IMG/VR virus record: IMGVR_UViG_2923302340_000003
DNA: 11,115 bases
Strand: one strand, 5' to 3'
DNA from: a virus
Taxonomy: Duplodnaviria; Heunggongvirae; Uroviricota; Caudoviricetes
Below, piece after piece: positions 1,245 to 11,115 of the stretch (positions within the stretch are counted from its first letter, which is position 1; every line of letters begins with the position of its first letter). The position numbers and the translations under genes were made by a program. A model generated the notes under the pieces. It worked only from the letters and a program-made list of their open reading frames with translations. It searched no databases and was not told the origin of the DNA.

Positions 1245-1545
1245 TAGTAGGCTGGCCGCGCCCTTCCTAGAAGGACGGGGCCGTAACTCCTTCTACACTT
1301 ACGCTAGAAGCTGGTAGATGAGATAGCCTAACTTTAAGTAAACCTGCCTTGCGAGTCAATTAACATTAGAAAGCGATTATGTAAATGTGGATGCTGACTT
1401 GGCGAAAAATCCTTATAAATCAATAGATAGTAGGTTTATTTTCAACTCATAGTTTTTGACTATTAATAGTATGTTATCTATCTAAAAAAGTTTTCTGTAT
1501 TCATCGCAAAATCAATACTGCTTTAGCATTGTAGTTAGCCATCAG

Positions 1546-1571
1546 TTGCAAAAAGCCTTACCCGTAGGCTT
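1546..1571 (-). terminator. Candidate intrinsic terminator for the small minus-strand ORF
   Basis: AAGCCT (1553-1558) and AGGCTT (1566-1571) form a 6-bp stem with a 7-nt loop. On the minus strand the stem is followed by TTTGCAAC. It lies about 40 nt downstream of the stop at 1611. Confidence 0.35.
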
Positions 1572-1610
1572 AACATTTGGCTTGGCTGTAGTCTTACCGT
1601 AACGCTCCGC

Positions 1611-1790
1611 TCACCGTCGTGGCCTGTCCGGTTTCCGCCACTGATACGGCCTCACATCATCATGCTGGCGGCGTTCCTGTTGCAGCACAACGGAAACAGG
1701 CGCTGAACACCTGTTAATTTTGCTTGCTGTTTGTTTGATTCCGGCAATGCTGCGGATCATCTCCAGCATATCGGCTTCGGTGATGGTCAT
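1611..1790 (-). CDS. Small hypothetical protein (59 aa, MTITEADMLEMIRSIAGIKQ...), absent from the supplied ORF track
   Basis: Hand translation of the minus strand: ATG at 1790-1788, stop TGA at 1613-1611. AAGGTG Shine-Dalgarno lies 8-12 nt upstream (reverse complement of 1798-1803). A hairpin with T-run follows downstream. Confidence 0.35.
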   Translation of the reverse strand: MTITEADMLEMIRSIAGIKQTASKINRCSAPVSVVLQQERRQHDDVRPYQWRKPDRPRR

Positions 1791-1819
1791 GATTTACACC
1801 TTAGGAAATCTTAGGGGGC

Positions 1820-2090
1820 TGGTTGACACTTTCCGGCTTAAGACCTTAATAAATCTTAATATCGCAGGTTGACACACTTGACACTTTTTCGGGAAAAACC
1901 TTAACAAAACTTAACCATCCCTGGCATTTCTAAGCATGGCAACTTGACACTTTTCGCGATTTTTTCGGCTTTTTGACGAGGTAAATCTGGCGCAAAGCCA
2001 GTAACGGCGGGGTTTACAGCGAGGTTGACACTTTTTCGCGTTCAGAGTGTAAAGTGTCAACCTGGCAAGCTGCTCAACTTGACACTTTTT
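1820..2090. repeat. Iteron array 2: seven copies of TTGACACTTTT(T)CG-like repeats (six direct, one inverted), interspersed with CTTAA/CTTAG short repeats
   Basis: TTGACAC at 1823, 1869, 1878, 1944, 2024 and 2079. Inverted copy GTGTCAA at 2054-2060. Most are followed by a T4-5 run and CG. The array sits between the HTH gene end (2095) and the small ORF start (1790). Confidence 0.6.
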
Positions 2091-2094
2091 GATG

Positions 2095-2632
2095 TCATTG
2101 ATGGTCTGATTTTTCCCATTCAGCCAAGGCGTTTAGTCCTGCCTCACTCCATGTGTCCTGTTCATCGGGACAATCGCTGGCAACATAGCATAGTTCACAA
2201 CGCAACATACGAATTGCCAGCCAGGCATTACCCCGCAAATTGTATTGTTCAAAGTAATGCTGCCCGTCGCAATCCTCAAGGCAGATAGCACCACCATCAA
2301 GAAATTGCACTTCCCAGCCTAATTCCCCGGCTGCATTCAGCACACGCTGCCGTATGTCATCGTCCGTTACTGGTGCAGGGATTTTACCGTCTCTGGCCTT
2401 AACTGCTTTCCAGAACTCGCCCCACGTCATTTCCAGCGTTCTTTCTGGCCACATTTCAGAAACTGCGTCTTTTCCCTGTGCTGGTGGGCTGTTCCGCTGC
2501 TCTGTCGCTTCCACATCGATTTTTTTACCGGACATAACCACTTCGCCTTTCTCGATCCAGTCGTAAACTGTCTGGCGGCTTACGCCTTTGTGTTTGGCGT
2601 ATTCAGCTTTACTCATCAACATGTGGCTCACC
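2095..2632 (-). CDS. DNA-binding protein with N-terminal HTH (Nu1/excisionase-like, SKAEYAKHKGVSRQTVYDWIEKGE) and C-terminal Cys cluster (CX3C...CX2C)
   Basis: ORF on the minus strand. GAGGTGA Shine-Dalgarno 5 nt before ATG at 2632. The track's 2661 start is probably an upstream extension. HTH assignment is from motif resemblance only. Confidence 0.6.
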
Positions 2633-2687
2633 TCATGCATATACGATAAAAATAATTTCATGCGGAAAAGGAATGCGTTGTGGATAT

Positions 2688-2712
2688 GGAGGAAAGGGGC
2701 AATAACTGCCCC
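2688..2712 (-). terminator. Candidate intrinsic terminator after gene 2721..2993
   Basis: GGGGCA (2696-2701) and TGCCCC (2707-2712) form a 6-bp perfect stem with a 5-nt loop. On the minus strand it is followed by TTTCC. Confidence 0.4.
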
Positions 2713-2720
2713 TTGTTGAT

Positions 2721-2993
2721 TCAGTTACGCCAGGATGGCTGACTAAGCGTGGTTTTCATTACATCGTTGACGACCTGTTTTACGATTTCTGTGTTGGCTG
2801 TCGTGCTTTCAACATCAACAAAACCATAATCGCCAATTTCCACTGTCAGAGATTCCAGTTTCTTCCCCAGCGCATCAGGCAACTCTCCACTGAACCGGTG
2901 CTGAAGATTTTCCACCAGCAACGCCCTGAATGCCTCGCTGTTCTCTTTTTTCTGCCATAGCTGGCGTTTATCCACTCTGATATTTAATTTCAC
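2721..2993 (-). CDS. Hypothetical protein (90 aa), GTG start
   Basis: GTG start overlaps the TGA stop of the upstream gene in a GTGA arrangement. Strong AAGAGGTGA Shine-Dalgarno immediately upstream. Classic translational coupling. Confidence 0.6.
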   Translation of the reverse strand: MKLNIRVDKRQLWQKKENSEAFRALLVENLQHRFSGELPDALGKKLESLTVEIGDYGFVDVESTTANTEIVKQVVNDVMKTTLSQPSWRN

Positions 2994-3157
2994 AGTCTCA
3001 CCTCTTTAAGTGCCTTATCCATCAGTTGCCGGGCAATAACATGAATCGACGGCGCCACACCAAGCACAGATTTCTGACGCTCTTCGTCCTGGATACGTTG
3101 CAGGGCTTCAATCTGCCTCCGGGAAAGTAAAACTGGCTTTACTCCGTGACCTTTCAT
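2990..3157 (-). CDS. Small hypothetical protein (55 aa, MKGHGVKPVLLSRRQIEALQRIQDEERQK...), possible small regulator
   Basis: ATG at 3157 preceded by GGGAGA Shine-Dalgarno. The track ORF 2990..3226 has an implausible N-terminal extension. Confidence 0.5.
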   Translation of the reverse strand: MKGHGVKPVLLSRRQIEALQRIQDEERQKSVLGVAPSIHVIARQLMDKALKEVRL

Positions 3158-3189
3158 GATTTTTCTCCCGAATAATAACAACCACAACA

Positions 3190-3245
3190 ATTGCACAAAA
3201 TGAAATGATAGCGATAAATATTGCAATTAATGAAATGCAATAAGG
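3190..3245. promoter_or_regulatory. Two direct repeats ATTGCA-N4-ATGAAATG about 34 bp apart in the promoter region of the 55-aa gene; candidate regulator binding sites
   Basis: aattgcaCAAAatgaaatg and attgcaATTAatgaaatg, both read directly from the sequence. Confidence 0.3.
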
Positions 3246-3263
3246 CCGGGAAAAATCCCGGCC
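3229..3263 (-). terminator. Intrinsic terminator-like hairpin just downstream of the PerC-like gene
   Basis: GGCCGGG (3244-3250) and CCCGGCC (3257-3263) form a 7-bp perfect GC stem with a 6-nt loop. On the minus strand it is followed by TTATTGCATTTCATT. Confidence 0.5.
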
Positions 3264-3267
3264 TCCG

Positions 3268-3555
3268 TCACTGACTGCAATTTTTCGATCCAGGATATTT
3301 CCTGAATGCCTTACCATTGGGCTGATGTAATCCCATTCCGGCATGTGCCCGGCTGATGGTTTCGCGCATCTCCCCGAAATTATCCTGCTTTGCTGGTGGG
3401 CGTGCTGCCTTGCGGATACATTCCGCACGGCGCTTTGCCGCCTGTTCCCGTGCCTTGTCACCGTTCGCCAGCATAATGACCTCAGCCCACCGTTCCGCCG
3501 CTCTCCGGTACAGACCACGCGCTTCCAGTGCTTCCGCTTTGCTGTCGTGAATCAT
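3268..3555 (-). CDS. PerC-family-like transcriptional regulator (95 aa)
   Basis: The N-terminal motif AEALEARGLYRRAAERW resembles what I recall of PerC/Pch-type regulators. Start overlaps the stop of the upstream gene (ATGA). Family call is from memory, not searched. Confidence 0.5.
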   Translation of the reverse strand: MIHDSKAEALEARGLYRRAAERWAEVIMLANGDKAREQAAKRRAECIRKAARPPAKQDNFGEMRETISRAHAGMGLHQPNGKAFRKYPGSKNCSQ

Positions 3556-4094
3556 GCGCCTGTTTTCTCCTTTGCTGCCCGGCGCTGACGTTTGCGCTTC
3601 TCATTCAGCGCCACCAGCCGCGTTTCTGCGTCCTGTTGTTCCTGTGGTGTCACCTCGCCGCACGGCTGGCCTTTCAGGTCGTAGCGTACCCCACCAGCCA
3701 TTAAGGCGCGGTAATAGCGCGGACACTGCGCATAAGATGCCAGCGTCGCACGTAATGCCCCTGGCCCGAATGCCAGCCCCCTGACGGCGAGATCCTGCAT
3801 CAGGTCGTCGAATATCCCCACCTTAAGCGGCTTCGGTGCTTCCCGGCTGAATAATTCAGGCCACAACTCAGTGAGGCGGTTAACGCGCCTGCGGTTTTTG
3901 TGCTGGCGTTTGGTCATATGCCGCCACGGTGTCGCCCCTGTGGGCTTCTGCTGCGCTTTCTGGTTACCGGGCATCACTTTATGCGCCGATGTGGTTTTAT
4001 CCTGCTCCTGCGCCGCCTGCGTCGTTTTCTGCGGCGTGCCGTAAATGCCTTTAGGTTTTCTGTTAATGGTCAGCTTAGTCATGCTTTGCCCCAT
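3552..4094 (-). CDS. ProQ/FinO-domain RNA-binding protein with a basic N-terminal extension; true start may be the second ATG at 4082
   Basis: The segment LWPELFSREAPKPLKVGIFDDL...LRATLASYAQCPRYYRALMAGGVRYDLKGQPCGEV aligns by eye with the E. coli ProQ N-terminal domain (FPHCF...RPLKIGIFQDL...RVDLDGNPCGEL). Confidence 0.8.
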   Translation of the reverse strand: MGQSMTKLTINRKPKGIYGTPQKTTQAAQEQDKTTSAHKVMPGNQKAQQKPTGATPWRHMTKRQHKNRRRVNRLTELWPELFSREAPKPLKVGIFDDLMQDLAVRGLAFGPGALRATLASYAQCPRYYRALMAGGVRYDLKGQPCGEVTPQEQQDAETRLVALNEKRKRQRRAAKEKTGA

Positions 4095-4175
4095 CGTTTT
4101 TACTGATTGCTACGTTGCCCAACGGCACTGACACAACATTCTGTTTTCATTTTTAACATTCCTGATTTTTTAATT

Positions 4176-4560
4176 CCTCACCTGCTGCACAGTGAGAATT
4201 TATGAAGTTAATAACAATATGATTTTAAATGTATTTTTAAGTACTCACTTTTTAATCCTTATATATACGCAAAAGTGAGGTAAATAGTTAAGTTTTAGTT
4301 AATATCTTGCATGGTGTGTTTTTTAACCTACCTGTTATTTTATTACCTCATTTCTATTAACTCACCATTCCTCACTTTTGTTCCTCACTTTTTATTATTC
4401 TTGTTCTGCTCCTCAGTCGTTTTCTTTATTGTTGTAATCTGTTGTTTTGCAATGTGTTTTTAACTCCTCACTTTTTGACCTATATACAGGTGAGAAAGTG
4501 AGGAAAACAGGGATGATTTTTAAATATTCCCTGCCCCCTCACTTTTACGCCTCACTTTTT
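4176..4560. repeat. Iteron array 1 (probable replication origin): CCTCACTTTT repeats in an AT-rich region immediately downstream of the replication gene
   Basis: Direct copies at 4244, 4370, 4383, 4466, 4537 and 4550. Inverted copies AAAGTGAGG at 4272-4280 and 4495-4503. Partial copies at 4176, 4346 and 4361. The last copy abuts the rep stop codon. Confidence 0.65.
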
Positions 4561-5971
4561 ACAGTGGGCGCACATCATCACCGTCAATAGCGATTACGCC
4601 GTCACCTTCCAGCTTGTACAGCCAGCGCCGGAAGTTTTTCATCTCATACCCCAGCTTTTTCATGTCATCGCGCAACAACGGAATAGTGCATTTATCTCCG
4701 CGTTGCGTGCGTGAACGGATACAGCCCCATAGTGCGGCGTGATTCTCCGTCTTGTTCCCGGCTTCCTCGATGCGCTCCAGTTCAACTGGCGGACGGGGCT
4801 TATCCTCCAGCACCAACGACGTGATTAACTCCCCGCCTTCATCCTTGAAAAGCTCAACCTCGCGCAAATCGCAAGCCATTTCTTTCAGTTCCTCCGCATC
4901 CTTCATCTTGGTACATGCGATAACCAGGGCTTCACTGCCTGCACCTTCACGGCGTATCCGGTACTCTGCATCCAGTGCTGCACGAAACGCACTGGAACCG
5001 CGCGCACCCTTTGTTTCATCCTTGCCGGAATGGTGAATTACCAGCACTGTAGCGCCTGTACGCCGTTTCAGTTCGTCACATCCATGGACAAATGCCCCCA
5101 TATCCCGCGCATCATTTTCATCGCTGCCACCAAAGCAACGCGCCAGAGTATCCAGAATAATCATGCGTACAGGTTTACCCGTTTCCTGCTCAACCTGTCG
5201 GGCAGCAATAACCATTTCATCAACATCACTCGGTGCGGCCGGAAAAATTGGACGATTTACCAGGTACAGATTTTTCACCTGCTCACTGTTCACCAGTTCC
5301 CATGCCTTGATACGACGAGGAACACCGATCCCCCCCTCACCAACGACATACATCACCGCACCATGTACAACCCTGCGACCTCCCCACGGGATACCGGTAG
5401 CAACATGACACGCCCACGAACACGCAAGGAACGACTTATAAGAACCGCTCGCACCGTATGTGCTACATAGCGAATTAGCCGGAATCACACCCTTAACCAC
5501 ATAGCTAAGCTGTGAATCGTATCCTTCCGATCCAATGCTCATTGGTAGCGTGGTTTTTCGCTGGCTGTATTGCTCGTCAGTAAGCATTTCTTCGCGCTCT
5601 GCCTGTTCGCGGATCCGTTGCAGGTAATCGCGCCAGTTCTCCGGCTCCCGGTCGGTGATGCCTTTGTATAATTTCGCCTCCTGTACGCCAGCCAGTGCCA
5701 GTTTTTCAGCGATAGCATTGATCTGGATTGGTTCGATCTCCCCCGCGAGATAGACACGCGCAAAGCGGCGTTCATCGTCGACAATGCGGATATTCGCCAG
5801 GTCTGCCAGTTGCTTTGGCCCCAGGTAAACAGGTGGTACGTTATCGCCGTGTTTTCGTCCTTCGCTTTCAATCCAGTGTTGAGCATGGGCGTAAGCATCC
5901 GTCCCGGCAAAAATGATTACCTCAGTGAATTTATCCTTCGGCTGATATTTCAAACTCGGTGCGTTTTTCAC
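4559..5971 (-). CDS. Replication protein: N-terminal TOPRIM-like region fused to a RecA-fold (RepA/DnaB-like) ATPase; putative primase/helicase
   Basis: Walker A GASGSYKS and Walker B-like MIILDTL are present. N-terminal acidic motifs (FAGTD, IVDDE) suggest TOPRIM. The start is directly adjacent to the upstream stop. Iterons lie immediately downstream. Confidence 0.8.
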   Translation of the reverse strand: MKNAPSLKYQPKDKFTEVIIFAGTDAYAHAQHWIESEGRKHGDNVPPVYLGPKQLADLANIRIVDDERRFARVYLAGEIEPIQINAIAEKLALAGVQEAKLYKGITDREPENWRDYLQRIREQAEREEMLTDEQYSQRKTTLPMSIGSEGYDSQLSYVVKGVIPANSLCSTYGASGSYKSFLACSWACHVATGIPWGGRRVVHGAVMYVVGEGGIGVPRRIKAWELVNSEQVKNLYLVNRPIFPAAPSDVDEMVIAARQVEQETGKPVRMIILDTLARCFGGSDENDARDMGAFVHGCDELKRRTGATVLVIHHSGKDETKGARGSSAFRAALDAEYRIRREGAGSEALVIACTKMKDAEELKEMACDLREVELFKDEGGELITSLVLEDKPRPPVELERIEEAGNKTENHAALWGCIRSRTQRGDKCTIPLLRDDMKKLGYEMKNFRRWLYKLEGDGVIAIDGDDVRPL

Positions 5972-6258
5972 TTCTTACCTCCCGCAACCAACATTGCCCG
6001 GATTTTTTTAATATTCGTGGCTGCACGTCTTGCCACTGCCTGTTGTTTGTTTTCAACCAGAATAAAATCACGCTCAAACTGACGGCGCGGCATTACGCAG
6101 TCATATTCGTAAGCCTCACGGCGGTAGGTGATATTGCCTGGCGTAACGTGACGAATAACCACTCGTCCCCCACGTCTGGTGTCGCGGTAAATATCGCCGT
6201 GTCTGATTTCAGGCCGAGCGGGGCCGCTGGCAGTAAAGCCAGAATTTTTCTTTTTCAT
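5968..6258 (-). CDS. Hypothetical protein (96 aa), coupled to the replication gene
   Basis: AGGAAA Shine-Dalgarno upstream of ATG at 6258. Its stop is directly adjacent to the rep start codon. Confidence 0.55.
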   Translation of the reverse strand: MKKKNSGFTASGPARPEIRHGDIYRDTRRGGRVVIRHVTPGNITYRREAYEYDCVMPRRQFERDFILVENKQQAVARRAATNIKKIRAMLVAGGKK

Positions 6259-6262
6259 GGTT

Positions 6263-6463
6263 TTATTTTCCTGTCAGCAGTTCCGGTTTTATTTCCGCAC
6301 GAATACAAAGTTCAGAAAAAAATTCAGGAGAACCAACAATCTCATTACTTTTCAGTCGGCATTGTGATTTCACTTTCCCTTTATCCAGGTAAACCAGTAC
6401 GCGTCCGGTGAAATCATCTGGCACACTCAGGGTAATTGTCATTGTTGCTTGCTGATTATCCAT
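6263..6463 (-). CDS. Hypothetical small protein (66 aa) with one copy of an FTG-x-LV...G-x-V-x-S...RL module
   Basis: 8-nt overlap with the upstream gene. Shares a motif with the 121-aa protein encoded at 6456..6821. Confidence 0.55.
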   Translation of the reverse strand: MDNQQATMTITLSVPDDFTGRVLVYLDKGKVKSQCRLKSNEIVGSPEFFSELCIRAEIKPELLTGK

Positions 6464-6821
6464 GATTCACCCCCTGAATAACCTGATAACCGCAACTGGT
6501 CAGCAATTCGATAAATTCCGGCAGTGTGCCGAAACAGCAATCATCACGCATACGTTCGCGGGATACCTCAACGCCGTTTTCGTAGTGACTCACCATGCGT
6601 CCAGTAAAATGCAGATCATCATCGTGATGGCACGTTGACGGCTTAATCAGTCGCGCACGTTCTGCCAGCTCCAGCAATGCTTCAACACTTCCGGCAATTG
6701 CACCATCCGGCAGGCGATAATTACTTACCACGCGTCCATTCTCCACATTGACCAGTAGCTGCCCGGTAAATTTCTCATCAAACTGAATGCTGTTAAGGTC
6801 AGAAATTGACAGGTTATGCAT
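6456..6821 (-). CDS. Hypothetical protein (121 aa) with two tandem copies of the same module (FTGQLLVNVENGRVVSNYRL and FTGRMVSHYENGVEVSRER)
   Basis: Strong AGGAGGTG Shine-Dalgarno 5 nt upstream of ATG at 6821. 8-nt overlaps with both neighbouring genes. Confidence 0.6.
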   Translation of the reverse strand: MHNLSISDLNSIQFDEKFTGQLLVNVENGRVVSNYRLPDGAIAGSVEALLELAERARLIKPSTCHHDDDLHFTGRMVSHYENGVEVSRERMRDDCCFGTLPEFIELLTSCGYQVIQGVNHG

Positions 6822-7179
6822 GGTGCACCTCCTGGCGAATACGGGCGGCGAATACCATCACACAGCCATCAGGAGATTGCTGGCGTGCTTCCTGTTCGCT
6901 GGTGGCCTCGATGTGAATTACGCGCGGTTGTGCCGTGCTCAGGGCGATAAAACGCCAGATAAAATTGTTCTCGCATTTCTGAATAAACAGCGTGTTTTCT
7001 TCGCGCCCTTTCCATGTTGCCGAGATATAGCCCATGTCATTGAGCATCTCGCAGGCATCCACCAGCGTATCAGCGGCTACGTGTACAGTGTTTTTACCGT
7101 CAGCCATGCAATCACGGTGCACCGCCAGGAAGGTGTATATAAATTTAGGGTGAGTTTGGGTATGCTGTGTTCCAGCCAT
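6814..7179 (-). CDS. Hypothetical protein (121 aa, MAGTQHTQTHPKFIYTF...), first gene of the replication operon
   Basis: GGAG Shine-Dalgarno 9-12 nt upstream of ATG at 7179. The track's 335-aa ORF (to 7821) is an artefactual upstream extension that crosses the divergent promoter and the opposite-strand gene. Confidence 0.55.
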   Translation of the reverse strand: MAGTQHTQTHPKFIYTFLAVHRDCMADGKNTVHVAADTLVDACEMLNDMGYISATWKGREENTLFIQKCENNFIWRFIALSTAQPRVIHIEATSEQEARQQSPDGCVMVFAARIRQEVHHA

Positions 7180-7253
7180 AATCGTTACTCCAGTTAACGG
7201 TTTGGTTAGACGCCCTGCATGTGTTGCGAGCACTGCGGGGCGTCGCTCTTTTA

Positions 7254-7305
7254 GGTGTATTTCACCTTTGCTTTTTAATTTACTCACTGGTGAAATACAC
7301 TTCAA
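7254..7305. promoter_or_regulatory. Operator-like perfect 12-bp inverted repeat GTGTATTTCACC-N22-GGTGAAATACAC overlapping a candidate minus-strand sigma70 promoter
   Basis: Left arm 7254-7265, right arm 7288-7299. Candidate minus-strand promoter: -35 TTGAAG (reverse complement of 7299-7304) and -10 TAAATT (reverse complement of 7276-7281) with 17-bp spacing. TATACT at 7331-7336 may be the -10 for the plus-strand gene. Confidence 0.5.
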
Positions 7306-7366
7306 GCCTTTTTTTATCATTTTTTTTGCGTATACTGACATACACCAATTTTTAGGAGATCCAGAA

Positions 7367-7546
7367 ATGGCAACTGGTGCAAAGAACGCAAAATCACAAA
7401 TGACAACTGTCAGAATCCCACATGAAGTAATGGATGATATTGAGCAACTTAAAGAACCTGGCGAAAGTACCGCTGGTTTTTTAGTTACTGCCGCAAAAGG
7501 CGAGATCAAACGCCGCCAGCGTCGCAAGGCCAAAGAGCAGGAGTAG
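7367..7546 (+). CDS. Small protein (59 aa, MATGAKNAKSQMTTVRIPHEVMDDIEQLKEPGE...) divergent from the replication operon; candidate regulator
   Basis: AGGAG Shine-Dalgarno 7-11 nt upstream of ATG at 7367. Basic C-terminal tail. The track ORF 7202..7546 has an implausible N-terminal extension. Confidence 0.5.
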   Translation: MATGAKNAKSQMTTVRIPHEVMDDIEQLKEPGESTAGFLVTAAKGEIKRRQRRKAKEQE

Positions 7547-7767
7547 TTGATCAGCACCGGACGACCAGAAAAAATTGCATCAGTCGCGCCACCAGCAGTA
7601 TTTTTTGCTTTCCGGACAGCGTGGCCAACGGCATTTTGCAGCAAAATATTCTGCATTTCTGGCGTGCTGTAGAAACGGTGATCAGCGCCTTCACATTGAA
7701 CGAACTTGTCGCTAAAATTCACCCACATAGCAAACATCGCGGTGCTGTAGGTAATTCGTTCACAAAG

Positions 7768-7798
7768 GCGCTCCGGCAACGGGGCGCTTTTTCTTTTT
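7768..7798 (+). terminator. Strong rho-independent terminator (plus strand), possibly weakly bidirectional
   Basis: GCGCTCCG (7768-7775) pairs with CGGGGCGC (7780-7787) around a GCAA tetraloop. This is an 8-bp stem with one G-U pair, followed by TTTTTCTTTTT (7788-7798). Confidence 0.7.
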
Positions 7799-7813
7799 GT
7801 AACGGTCAGAGCG

Positions 7814-8614
7814 TTACACATGGCTGTTTTCCTCCATGCGACGGGCTAACCAACGCTGCGAAAGACGAATTAATTCAGCTTTCCGCTGGTGGTAGTCCTG
7901 GCCTAACTCAATCAGCGTGATATTGCTCTGCTCAAGGTAAGAAAGGTGCTCAAGCTGCAACGTGCTCATGTGGTCGCGTGGTTCGCCTGTGATGCCGTTC
8001 GCCTGCGCCCACTGTTTTGCAGTCATGCCACCCAGCACGATACGCGCCAGCATATTGGCTTCCGTGGTGTAGTGGTGCTGGAACGTGTTTTTACCCAGTT
8101 CAGCCCGGTACGCCTCCAGCGCGGCGCACATCGGCTTAAAGTAACTGGCAACGGTGATACGGGCTTTCAGTTCCCGGCGTAACGCTGCGGAACGAACAGG
8201 CGCTACCTTGTGTAGCTCCTCCTCGCATTTGATGAAGTACTGACGAACGGCGCGGCCCTGTTCGGTGCGTTCGACCATCGCCAGTTCTTTCGCCATGTTC
8301 ACGGTAATGATGTACTCAAGAGCTGTTTGCTGGCGAGATTTTGCGCTCACCGGATCGGGTCGGCTCAAATATTCAACAACCTCATAATCCACGCCTTCCG
8401 TGAAGCCGTATTCTTCAATGCGCCCCTTGATCCACGAACGGAAAACGCGACCTACACCTAACGCCTTATGCAACGCTCTGGCGCTAACAATATTGGTTTC
8501 ACACCCGCCAATAATGCCGGAAATAACCGGGATAATTTCGCCGAAATTTTGCAGATTCTGGTTTTCAGGCCGAACGAAGCCCTGCCCCTGTACGGGCGTT
8601 TTTCGCAGTTTCAT
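7814..8614 (-). CDS. Phage antirepressor-like protein (AntA-type N-terminal domain)
   Basis: The N-terminal region SARALHKALGVGRVFRSWIKGRIEEYGFTEGVDYEV resembles the AntA antirepressor domain pattern, recalled from memory. 266-aa ORF. Confidence 0.65.
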   Translation of the reverse strand: MKLRKTPVQGQGFVRPENQNLQNFGEIIPVISGIIGGCETNIVSARALHKALGVGRVFRSWIKGRIEEYGFTEGVDYEVVEYLSRPDPVSAKSRQQTALEYIITVNMAKELAMVERTEQGRAVRQYFIKCEEELHKVAPVRSAALRRELKARITVASYFKPMCAALEAYRAELGKNTFQHHYTTEANMLARIVLGGMTAKQWAQANGITGEPRDHMSTLQLEHLSYLEQSNITLIELGQDYHQRKAELIRLSQRWLARRMEENSHV

Positions 8615-8691
8615 AAAAACTCCTGCTATCGAATTAAGTTACTTTTTATTTGCTGGTGGATAGCTGGGGAAAAAGCCCCGTTGCTGTTTAA

Positions 8692-8919
8692 TCAGGCTGA
8701 TGTGTTTCGGCGTTCTTCCAGCCAGCGATTAATCTCTACCGCATCGAATGCAGTGCTTTTCTCACCCAGTTTGATGGGCTTAGGCATCTTCCCGCTACGC
8801 ACCCAACGATCGAGCGTTGATAAGCTGGTACCCAGCAATTCAGCCAGGCGATAGCGGCGGATATAGCCAGTTGCAGGGATTGCGGTTTGAAGTATTGGTT
8901 GGTTTTTCATATGCCCCAT
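8692..8919 (-). CDS. alpA: AlpA-family phage transcriptional regulator (about 72-75 aa)
   Basis: Motif RYRLAELLGTSLSTLDRWVRSGKMPKPIKLGEKSTAFDAVEINRWL matches the AlpA/Vis-type pattern. The track ORF start at 9003 is an extension. Likely start is ATG at 8919 or 8910. Confidence 0.75.
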   Translation of the reverse strand: MGHMKNQPILQTAIPATGYIRRYRLAELLGTSLSTLDRWVRSGKMPKPIKLGEKSTAFDAVEINRWLEERRNTSA

Positions 8920-9022
8920 TACCTTTGTTGTTGGTTTGTGATTCGTAATAGGGGCATTAAATAACAAATGAAATGATGTGTGTGTGAGTTTTAGAAAAAA
9001 CACTGTGACTTTTCTTATTTCA

Positions 9023-9805
9023 CTATCTAAAACGCTCTCGCCAGCTTTTCCAAGTGTTCTTATCTGGTTGTGGGATTACAATGCCTTTTTGAGCACCTAT
9101 TTGTGCAATTTTTTTATTTAACTTGTTAGGCGGCAAAGATATTATCTCATTGTCTGTTAATCCGGCAATTCTTAATAATCCATATATCATTTTAAATTGA
9201 TGTATTGTTAATCTTGGTAACTTGTGATTTTCTTTTTTTATAGTGTTGTTTATGGAGTAAATTGGAAATCCATTTGTTATTGATTTATAAAGGTTGTCAA
9301 TGTGCTCTCTGGTTATTAATAATGAATCAGGTGTAATCTTAATGTTGCCGCTTGTTTTTGCATGGCATGAAAAAATAAATGTGGGATTCGCAGTGCGACG
9401 TGAAAGCGGTATGGATGTATTCATAGAGATAGTTTTGTTTCTTACTATAGTCTCTTGAATATCAAAAACTCCAGAAACCTTTGCCTCAAAAATAACACCA
9501 TTTTCTTTTATTTCATCACTATATTCATGAATAATTATGCCAAGAGAGGAAATTTCTTTTTTGATGAGAAAAGAAATAAAATCAATATAGTCTTCATCCT
9601 TTGGCCATGTAAAATCACGATAACCAAAATACCCCTCACAGTAAGCATTTTTTATTTTTGTGGCAAAATTAATTCTGTTAATATCCTGCCAATGCCATAA
9701 ATCATCTATTTCACATTCTAAAATTTGAGCTGCTCTATCTAAAGAGCAGAATTCTAATGGAGGTAATTGTTTTTTTTGCCATATTGTTTCATTAATATTT
9801 GTCAT
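9023..9805 (-). CDS. AT-rich orphan hypothetical protein (260 aa) inserted between int and alpA; candidate cargo gene
   Basis: Uninterrupted ORF in a block that is clearly more AT-rich than the flanking int and alpA genes. Asn/Ile/Lys-rich. No recognisable motif. Confidence 0.65.
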   Translation of the reverse strand: MTNINETIWQKKQLPPLEFCSLDRAAQILECEIDDLWHWQDINRINFATKIKNAYCEGYFGYRDFTWPKDEDYIDFISFLIKKEISSLGIIIHEYSDEIKENGVIFEAKVSGVFDIQETIVRNKTISMNTSIPLSRRTANPTFIFSCHAKTSGNIKITPDSLLITREHIDNLYKSITNGFPIYSINNTIKKENHKLPRLTIHQFKMIYGLLRIAGLTDNEIISLPPNKLNKKIAQIGAQKGIVIPQPDKNTWKSWRERFR

Positions 9806-9861
9806 GATTGCACTACCGTTATGAAAAAATATATTCGTTAATGAATTAGCCTTAATGTCTA

Positions 9862-11115
9862 TTATTTATTAGATTGCGTGATGTCAGAACATATCATGTT
9901 TTCTAAATTCACCAGCAAATCAGTCCACTGTGCCAGCGCCGCTTTGCGCTCATCAAAATATTGATGGCGGTTATAAATGCCCTCTACGCCTTTTATGCGG
10001 TGGTTAAGGCATCGTTCAGCAACGATCGGGTCAACTCCCAATGCTGCTAAATGTGTTCGTGCTGTTCGCCGGAAGTCGTGAATTGTAAAGTTGGGGACGT
10101 TCGGCATTTCTGCTCTGACTTTTGCCAATGCAACAGGAAGGGTGCTTTCCTGGATGTGAGGGATCATTCTGTGCTGCATTTTTCTGGCAGGTAATACCCA
10201 TGCGCTATTGCATGAAAATGTGTGCAATTCTCGCAACCATTCTATGGTCGCTGGTGGTAATGGTATGTCGATAGCATCGCCATTTTTAGTTCGTTGTTCT
10301 GGTAGATGCCAAATCGCGCCATCTAAGTCGAATTCATCCCACCTGGCGGCGCATAATTCCATTTTTCTGACACACAATGCTAAGAGCAACTTAAAGGTTA
10401 ATTCGTTCTGGCGGCTGAATCCTTTGGCTTTACGCATGGCCTGAAAAAATTGGATTAATTCGTCACGGTTCAGCCAGCGATCACGAGATAATTCTTTCCC
10501 ACCAGCATCTGATACTTCAAAAGCTGAGCAGGGGTTAACCTCCAAAGCAAGGCGTTTAATACCGTAGTCAAATATTCGACGTGTCCACCGAAGAACGTCA
10601 GTAGCAATTGTTGGAGCGCCTCTATCAACAATGCTTTTAAGCATGGCATCAATATGGCGTGGTTTTACATCTTCAACCTTCATGTGGCCTATGGCAGGAT
10701 TTATGTCTTTATCAATGCGCCTGCGGAGAATATCTGGGTGTTTCCATCGGGGAAGTATTTGCCGTGCAAAGTATTCGGCGGCAAGTTCAGAAACATGCAG
10801 CGCGTTTTTTTCAGCTTCTATTTTTGCCAGTGCTTCGGCTTTACGCTGCTGTTTTTCTGCGGCTACGTCATATCCCAAAGCAACTCGTGCGGAAAGTTCT
10901 TTTGCCAGTTCCCTGGCTTTTGATAACGATAATTCAGAATATGAACCAATAAGCATGGCACGAGATTTTCCCGCCAGTTTATATCGAAACCGCCATGTCG
11001 GGGATCTATCCACCTCTCTATACCGGAGATATAGCCCACCACCATCAGCACGACCTTCGAAATGTTCTCCGGCTTTTATCCATGCGCGGATCTGCATATC
11101 TGTGAGTTTTGGCAT
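9862..11115 (-). CDS. int: P4-type tyrosine integrase (417 aa), apparently full length
   Basis: N-terminus MPKLTDMQIRAW...GGGLYLRY is typical of P4-family integrases. C-terminal catalytic motifs HDFRRTARTHL and EGIYNRHQY (Tyr nucleophile) are present. Confidence 0.9.
   Translation of the reverse strand: MPKLTDMQIRAWIKAGEHFEGRADGGGLYLRYREVDRSPTWRFRYKLAGKSRAMLIGSYSELSLSKARELAKELSARVALGYDVAAEKQQRKAEALAKIEAEKNALHVSELAAEYFARQILPRWKHPDILRRRIDKDINPAIGHMKVEDVKPRHIDAMLKSIVDRGAPTIATDVLRWTRRIFDYGIKRLALEVNPCSAFEVSDAGGKELSRDRWLNRDELIQFFQAMRKAKGFSRQNELTFKLLLALCVRKMELCAARWDEFDLDGAIWHLPEQRTKNGDAIDIPLPPATIEWLRELHTFSCNSAWVLPARKMQHRMIPHIQESTLPVALAKVRAEMPNVPNFTIHDFRRTARTHLAALGVDPIVAERCLNHRIKGVEGIYNRHQYFDERKAALAQWTDLLVNLENMICSDITQSNK

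Follow-up and report, generated by a model that had tools for sequence, protein, structure and literature searches.

A FinO-domain gene overlaps a PerC-family gene in the replication block of an Escherichia coli phage satellite

The gene pair and its products

We analysed an 11,115-nt stretch of DNA from IMG/VR virus record IMGVR_UViG_2923302340_000003 (Caudoviricetes; called the window below, with positions counted from its first letter), focusing on two adjacent genes that encode a FinO-domain protein and a PerC-family regulator. A first-pass annotation, made from the letters and their translations, had placed the pair on a mobile element, and the gene content agrees with this: judged by the genes it carries, the host element is a phage satellite of Escherichia coli of the phage-inducible chromosomal island (PICI) type. 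The minus strand of the window contains two open reading frames (ORFs), 3552..4094 (180 aa) and 3268..3555 (95 aa). Both are thus present in the span of 3268-4094 originally given for the pair, but the FinO-like gene starts at 4082, 4094 being an upstream in-frame ATG. The second ATG, at 4082 (MTKLTINRK...), is conserved and has a conserved GGGG ribosome-binding site; ATG 4094, which would add MGQS, is missing in most relatives, and the homologues called by the NCBI annotation pipeline (PGAP) begin at the second ATG. We therefore place the FinO/ProQ-domain gene at 3552..4082 (minus strand, 176 aa), an assignment that draws on Pfam, matches to solved structures, an AlphaFold2 (AF2) model searched with Foldseek, start conservation and the ratio of nonsynonymous to synonymous divergence (dN/dS). 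Residue numbers of this protein are nevertheless counted from 4094 throughout.

The two genes meet at 3552..3555, where the plus strand reads TCAT and hence the minus strand ATGA: the TGA of the FinO gene (3554-3552) overlaps the ATG of the PerC gene (3555-3553), so that the overlap claimed at the outset could be read directly. An AAGGAG Shine-Dalgarno sequence (3567..3572, minus strand, reading 3572-3567) lies within the 3' end of the FinO gene, 11 nt 5' of the PerC ATG. The junction, CAGCAAAGGAGAAAACAGGCGCATGATT, is kept across related loci, and the identical 4-nt overlap is also found in loci L001-L003, L015-18 and L023-24. From this arrangement we infer that the FinO-like and PerC genes are translationally coupled.

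The first-pass annotation had recognised both families by eye and had proposed profile searches, which were run and bore out the two assignments. For the upstream gene, Pfam ProQ/FinO (PF04352) matched residues 68-172 with E=8.7e-24 (84 bits against a cut-off of 27, profile positions 5-108 of 109). Sequence matches to solved structures were the N-terminal domain of ProQ, FinO of the F plasmid, NMB1681 and RocC, the best being 5nb9 (ProQ, E=5.6e-12), and the proposed homology to ProQ therefore stands. An AF2 model built from an alignment of 57 homologues has a predicted local distance difference test score (pLDDT) of 88-96 over residues 60-178, and with it Foldseek recovered 1dvo, 3mw6, 7rgt, 7rgu and 6s10, all at probability 1.00 and with target-normalised TM-scores of 0.6-0.84; the proteins matched are FinO, NMB1681, RocC and Legionella ProQ. 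The FinO domain so defined (residues 61-178, codons 3561..3914, minus strand) consists in the model of helices at 62-77, 94-105, 111-122 and 125-133, a beta hairpin at 136-147 and a long, basic C-terminal helix at 150-178, that is, the helical core plus beta hairpin that marks the FinO fold. Ten RNA-binding positions of ProQ have been defined genetically (K35, K54, R58, Y70, L71, R80, D41, D82, G37 and G85; PMC7192607), and in an alignment to the ProQ structure sequence eight of them are kept: K35, R58, Y70 and R80 correspond to K91, R115, Y127 and R137, and D41, D82, G37 and G85 to D97, D139, G93 and G142.

Preceding the domain is a basic tail (residues 5-60, codons 3915..4082, minus strand) that includes the motif MTKLTINRKPKGIYG and Trp56. 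Residues 1-65 carry a net charge of +10 with an isoelectric point of 10.9, and residues 1-55 are predicted to be disordered (pLDDT <50 in the AF2 model), in keeping with the long basic N-terminal extension noticed earlier. The motif MTKLTINRKPKGIYG is kept even in homologues at 59-65% identity and, in the form LT[IL]xRKxxG, aligns weakly with the N-terminus of an F-type FinO (LTLKRKTEG). We considered whether the protein is an orthologue of ProQ or of FinO, and NCBIfam cut-offs and domain architecture rule out both. The ProQ model NF003434 gave 57.9 bits against a cut-off of 127, with model positions 5-120 of 205 alone matched, and the FinO model NF010317 gave 64.9 bits against 136, in a PICI context with no tra operon. 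Like ProQ, the chromosomal global RNA-binder of E. coli and Salmonella, the window protein has a FinO domain with the eight RNA-binding residues; unlike ProQ, it ends after that domain, without the linker or the Tudor-like C-terminal domain, and it has a 60-residue basic N-terminal tail that ProQ lacks. It comes closer to FinO of F-like plasmids and FopA of the IncI plasmid pCol1B9, which are likewise small single FinO domains with basic flanking tails, carried by mobile elements near replication or transfer functions. To an F-type FinO the domain is 36% identical and has the same fold, with the N-terminal motif possibly shared, but the long N-terminal helix of FinO contrasts with a disordered tail here. 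Further differences from FinO and FopA are that the host is a phage satellite and not a plasmid, that no FinP/traJ- or Inc/repZ-type pair was found, and that the window gene is, judging by its overlap, presumably coupled in translation to a PerC gene.

The downstream gene (3268..3555, minus strand, 95 aa) was identified from Pfam, identity to PchE, an AF2 model and dN/dS. Pfam PerC (PF06069) matched residues 1-89 (profile 1-89 of 90) with E=2.8e-32 and 111.3 bits against a cut-off of 22.6, and this match over the full length settles its membership of the PerC family. The protein is 93% identical to a 54-aa protein named PchE by NCBI and 66% identical to a 'PchABC family' protein. The NCBI-named pchE itself lies directly 3' of a FinO-like gene, with the same overlap, and its 54-aa product is a truncation of the 95-aa form seen in the window; by this comparison the window carries a full-length PchE-type allele. 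It shares a full-length PF06069 domain with PchE (the group 3 PerC homologue of O157:H7, on O-island 51/CP-933C), with PerC of enteropathogenic E. coli and with PchABC, the last of which differ in lying on lambdoid prophages without a FinO neighbour. The AF2 model of PerC is all-helical, with four helices and neither a helix-turn-helix nor another DNA-binding fold. A fold search with this model gave nothing significant, the weak matches being similar to tetratricopeptide repeats, so no mechanism can be derived from the structure. We also tried the ANR family (NCBIfam NF033650), which scored 16.2 bits over residues 6-52 (E=0.007) against a cut-off of 32; we take this as a helical-hairpin resemblance and not as membership.

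Transcription, distribution and selection

The pair follows the gene of a RepA-type (AAA_25) replicative helicase (4559..5971, minus strand; PF13481, E=3.8e-44) in the same orientation; PGAP names a homologue of this gene 'helicase RepA family protein'. Between helicase and FinO gene lies an AT-rich intergenic iteron region (4095..4558, 460 bp, 32.5% GC), the presumed PICI origin; it contains over ten iterons of the CCTCACTTTT type, which run in both directions, and at 4465-4504 a 20-nt palindrome that is almost perfect. As this region is directly 3' of the helicase gene, the operon transcript must cross it to reach the FinO gene. A promoter scan of 1500-6000 revealed no promoter-like site, and there was none in 4095-4558 either. 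Sequence shared with relatives ends about 20 nt upstream of the FinO start, so the cassette has no conserved promoter of its own, and in many relatives and other PICIs a gene for single-stranded DNA-binding protein (SSB) ends 36 nt upstream of that start, leaving no room for a private promoter. Taken together with a hairpin after PerC and with the 4-nt overlap, which recurs in 48 of the 80 IMG/VR loci counted below, these findings suggest that the FinO-like and PerC genes are transcribed as the tail of an AlpA-to-replicase operon.

The hairpin (3242..3265, minus strand) is GC-rich and of the terminator type, with a 10-bp stem that begins 2 nt after the PerC stop; its folding free energy is -22.8 kcal/mol (z = -4.85 against shuffled sequences). 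Read from 3265 to 3242, it is the sole minus-strand terminator-like site in 1500-11115. Among 48 related loci, 22 have a GGCCGGGA-type stem followed by a T run (mostly TTTTTTGTG), and five more have the stem with an interrupted T tract, as in the window. A recombination breakpoint falls exactly at the 3' base of the stem: relatives (L001 and IMG/VR loci) continue with TTTTTTGTG, giving a canonical terminator, while the window and strain ABU 83972 have CUUAUUGCAUUUC in place of the U-tract and run on as CTTATTGCATTTC into a different downstream module. Because the breakpoint replaced the U-tract, termination after PerC may be leaky in the window.

FinO-like DNA was detected in 1420 of 5426 complete E. 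coli genomes, about a quarter, and the FinO-PerC pair, at >=80% coverage, in 236. A scan of one genome per species (GTDB) returned just two loci, one in E. ruysiae and one in E. albertii, a number that does not allow statistics across species. True phages yielded distant FinO-like relatives alone; plasmids yielded FinO-type relatives at ~30-36% identity alone, plus one island-borne copy. In the closest E. coli genomes, where the island sits between yicC and dinD (~14 kb in strain A17), PGAP already names the two products 'ProQ/FINO family protein' and 'PerC family transcriptional regulator'.

Synteny was counted over 80 IMG/VR loci that encode a FinO-like relative. PerC directly follows FinO with the exact 4-nt overlap in 48; an ORF is inserted between the two in four, and another four have the reverse order, SSB-PerC-FinO. 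The capsid-forming PICI-like loci (19/80) have FinO, then an 82-aa ORF, then capsid genes. Elsewhere (L005-8) a 138-aa ORF after FinO was tried as a divergent PerC and rejected, since its matches are to PHROGs of anti-repressors and terminases, and further downstream there is a decayed PerC. Across the loci the FinO/PerC position is found behind replicases of the RepA, DUF927 or primase type. PerC occurs without FinO in the capsid-forming PICIs L011-14 and in EcCIMP1, and FinO-like genes occur alone, often as pseudogenes, in YagK/YfjJ-type islands. These varied arrangements indicate a combinatorial slot after replicase and origin, [SSB]-[FinO]-[PerC], and the FinO-like and PerC genes are separable modules whose products form no obligate complex.

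Both genes have nonetheless been maintained. Across relatives dN/dS is 0.14-0.30 for the FinO-like gene and 0.11-0.40 for PerC, at dS up to ~1.2; as measured by these ratios, both are under long-term purifying selection and the pair is no product of chance ORFs. Between the window and L018, dS is 0.21 for FinO and 1.11 for PerC, which suggests that PerC alleles were swapped behind the same FinO gene with the junction preserved. Two other loci place a FinO-type gene beside a nucleoid modulator: an F-type plasmid (L026 973-2395) has finO followed by hha, and a YagK/YfjJ-type island (L021 3473-5129) has a FinO-like gene near an H-NS-family gene. As PerC counters H-NS silencing, these parallel the FinO-PerC arrangement, but they may be coincidence.

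Possible roles of the pair

The site bound by FinO-family proteins is the base of an RNA hairpin that carries a 3' tail, in most cases an intrinsic terminator, and on mobile elements these proteins serve cis-encoded antisense RNAs, as in FinO/FinP and FopA/Inc (PMC9977716, PMC7491321). Foreign RNAs can be adopted as well, for example RepX by FinO and RocRp by RocC (PMC9977716). By analogy, the FinO-like protein of the window probably binds structured RNA 3' ends. Pch proteins, for their part, relieve silencing by H-NS, StpA and Hha (PMC4764244); csgD, curli and flagella are repressed by PchE, whose expression is basal (PMC6265319, PMC7369912), and deletion of pchE has a detectable curli phenotype (PMC6265319). 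PerC variants on PICIs affect the enterocyte effacement locus (LEE) (PMC6092414, PMC11773190). The cross-talk with host regulons suggested in the first-pass annotation is thus supported for PerC proteins in the literature (PMC6265319, PMC7369912, PMC11773190, PMC6092414), and the window allele might act in the same way by analogy.

Both families are already known and automatically annotated, and PerC on PICIs is published. The nearest precedents are EcCIMP1_025 and the other PICI PerC variants (Fillol-Salom 2018), which are likewise PICI-borne and affect host virulence regulation (PMC11773190, PMC6092414). EcCIMP1 differs in that it has no FinO-like gene, its PerC is located near accessory genes at the island's far end, and that PerC is very divergent from the window allele (dN 0.50). 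ProQ/FinO-like and PerC genes are also listed for PICIs of Enterobacter cloacae (Viruses 2026, PMC13612085), the same two families as PICI accessory genes; those are different elements, and the record is one of annotation only, with no coupling, synteny or function described. Papers on PchE and PICI-borne PerC (PMC6265319, PMC11773190, PMC6092414) mention no FinO/ProQ-type neighbour, and our literature search returned no description of a conserved FinO-PerC(PchE) coupling or of a function for a satellite FinO-like protein. The main text of the RNA-binding proteome (TRAPP) paper on enterohaemorrhagic E. coli does not mention the O157 FinO-like protein.

The reading we favour, with moderate confidence, is that the pair forms a regulatory and accessory cassette of two genes, placed distally in the leftward (minus-strand) early/replication operon of a PICI of the E. 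coli type. The pair would be transcribed as the tail of that operon and its two proteins translated in a coupled manner. In the manner of FinO, FopA, RocC and ProQ, the FinO-like protein would bind GC-rich, 3'-tailed hairpins at their base and might thereby stabilise or match a few RNAs of the element or of the helper phage, possibly including the 3' end of its own operon. PerC would act like Pch proteins, remodelling H-NS-containing nucleoprotein complexes and so shifting transcription of AT-rich host targets such as csgD, flagellar genes and LEE1; it may also act on the satellite's own downstream AT-rich packaging module (2095-3226). The cassette would in this way join an RNA 3'-end binder with an anti-silencer.

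Several findings weigh against this interpretation. At the protein level, two of the ten ProQ positions are altered, K54 and L71 being replaced by P111 and Y128. The hairpin after PerC lacks a clean U-tract in the window and is absent in L015-18 and in the capsid-forming PICIs. No obvious RNA partner emerged: an Rfam scan of the whole window at E<=1 detected no FinP, CopA, Inc or C4-type RNA (the sole match was a spurious microRNA hairpin on the origin palindrome, 4465-4504), no antisense unit stood out in promoter and terminator scans in or beside the cassette (terminator-like sites on the plus strand, at 3874-3890 and 4033-4049, do not exceed chance expectation), and a sliding-window analysis of synonymous sites in the FinO gene gave no clear trough (0.11-0.37 against 0.22 overall), hence no clear embedded RNA element. 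FinO and PerC are each found solitary (L019; L011-14 and EcCIMP1) or in reverse order (L020), so a joint mechanism is not required. The FinO-like gene is frameshifted in ABU 83972 (L002 8003-8520), truncated in L025 (6474-6896) and often a pseudogene in YfjJ-type islands, and PchE is cut to 54 aa; such frequent pseudogenisation argues that the genes are dispensable in some hosts. Long-term purifying selection argues against general uselessness. Finally, pchE expression drops on SOS induction (PMC6265319), a poor fit to purely helper-induced expression. The published pchE data suggest, by analogy, that the pair may also be expressed basally, besides transcription from the operon.

One candidate ligand did appear outside the cassette. 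The sole plus-strand unit inside the minus-strand operon consists of a 59-aa ORF (7367-7546, plus strand), without a Pfam match in the window and with homologues named YlcI/YnfO family by PGAP, and of an intrinsic terminator about 220 nt after it (7764-7791, plus strand; a 12-bp stem and T-run) that abuts the antA stop. A transcript of this unit would be antisense over its full length to RNA reading through the operon and is thus a candidate ligand of the FinO-like protein; the unit is also present in PICIs without FinO.

One alternative is antisense control of replication: the FinO-like protein would be the chaperone of an antisense or origin RNA that sets satellite copy number, as FopA does with Inc and repZ in IncI plasmids, and PerC would be an unrelated passenger. 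The gene always lies in the replication block (replicase, origin, optional SSB), whether the replicase is RepA, DUF927 or DNA primase, and the strong inverted repeats of the origin would form hairpins if transcribed; FopA and FinO are the precedents (PMC7491321, PMC9977716). We nevertheless consider this reading unlikely: the scans detected no antisense promoter or terminator near replicase or origin, neither CopA- nor Inc-type RNAs came up in the Rfam search, the FinO gene is absent from many PICIs that share these replicases, and published accounts have PICI replication driven by iterons, helicase and primase, antisense control of it not being known (PMC6092414). A shuffled, largely dispensable cargo with little role in this element, kept by hitch-hiking, with effects such as those of overexpressed PchE being incidental, would account for the frequent truncations and frameshifts, the combinatorial presence and absence, the allele swap at the junction (FinO dS 0.21, PerC dS 1.11, window against L018) and the lack of a private promoter. 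This explanation too seems quite unlikely: dN/dS of 0.1-0.4 over dS up to 1.2 shows that both genes have long been under purifying selection, the 4-nt junction is conserved, as is the N-terminal motif, and deletion of pchE has a curli phenotype (PMC6265319).

Least probable of these explanations, in our estimation, is inter-element warfare, in which the FinO-like protein would hit antisense or immunity RNAs of the helper phage, tuning induction or interference, or would act on FinP of F-like plasmids, inhibiting fertility in trans. Here one can point to the adoption of foreign RNAs by FinO-family proteins (PMC9977716), to the 36% domain identity and possibly shared N-terminal motif with F-type FinO, to the AntA antirepressor and the Icd-like gene in the same operon, both helper-directed functions, and to a candidate defence pair, PDC-M04, on the island. 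The NCBIfam FinO score is, however, well under its cut-off (64.9 against 136 bits), and the window protein either lacks the N-terminal helix by which FinO exchanges strands or has it in disordered form.

A bolder version of the cassette reading, which we regard as tentative and rather doubtful, is that the FinO-like protein is the first RNA chaperone dedicated to a phage satellite, acting post-transcriptionally, and that with the coupled PerC it forms a conserved two-layer cassette (RNA and H-NS chromatin) that explains orphan pchE phenotypes. On that same doubtful footing, the chaperone would control satellite replication, helper exploitation or inter-element competition through satellite or helper RNA.

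Until now, work on FinO-domain proteins of mobile elements has dealt with plasmids (FinO, FopA), and a well-conserved FinO-like subfamily is, as the counts above illustrate, a frequent resident of the replication block in E. coli phage satellites. Should the protein have an RNA partner dedicated to it, FinO-type riboregulation would extend from plasmids to satellites, and PerC/PchE phenotypes might need re-reading in the context of their operon; if it has none, the two are accessory genes, correctly annotated, on an island of known type.

The satellite and its other genes

The gene order of the window is that published for Gram-negative PICIs (PMC6092414): a small element in which integrase, alpA and a replicase beside an iteron origin share one orientation. 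Between 9805 and 1611 the genes run on the minus strand, and no capsid, tail or lysis genes were found in the 11,115 nt. Profile matches identified a tyrosine integrase (9862-11115, minus strand), AlpA (8692-9003, minus strand), an AntA-type antirepressor (7814-8614, minus strand) and a DUF4222 protein of 96 aa (5968-6258, minus strand). Between integrase and AlpA lies an AT-rich ORF of 260 aa (9023-9805, minus strand) with no match in Pfam, PHROGs or PADLOC; it occupies the same position in strain A17 and in several related loci.

A 335-aa ORF (6814-7821, minus strand) has an Icd-like domain at residues 287-330 (NCBIfam, E=5.8e-22). It overlaps the antA stop (ATGTGTAA) and runs antisense across the plus-strand 59-aa gene. 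Calls for this Icd-like ORF differ, PGAP predicting short genes in relatives and other gene callers a product of at least 383 aa. The DUF4222 protein has H20-G21-D22 where the PICI regulator RgdR (ECs1581, 99 aa) has R20-G21-D22, residues reported to be functionally important (PMC3378721; PMC6092414); likened by motif position, it is probably an R20H variant of the RgdR family.

Three small ORFs lie 3' of PerC. One of them (2095-2661, minus strand) has a product of 188 aa with an N-terminal helix-turn-helix similar to small terminase subunits (PHROG 57, E=3.6e-8); this may be a TerS-like protein of the satellite or one that redirects packaging. A PADLOC scan of the FinO-like and PerC proteins assigned neither to a defence system. 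At the start of the window, two overlapping plus-strand genes (1-1244) encode a DUF3800 protein and a 163-aa protein that PADLOC scores as the candidate defence system PDC-M04 (A, E=8e-98; B, E=1e-73). The PDC-M04 pair occupies the island's accessory end, a known location of defence systems in PICIs, and strain ABU 83972 has a different gene at this position.

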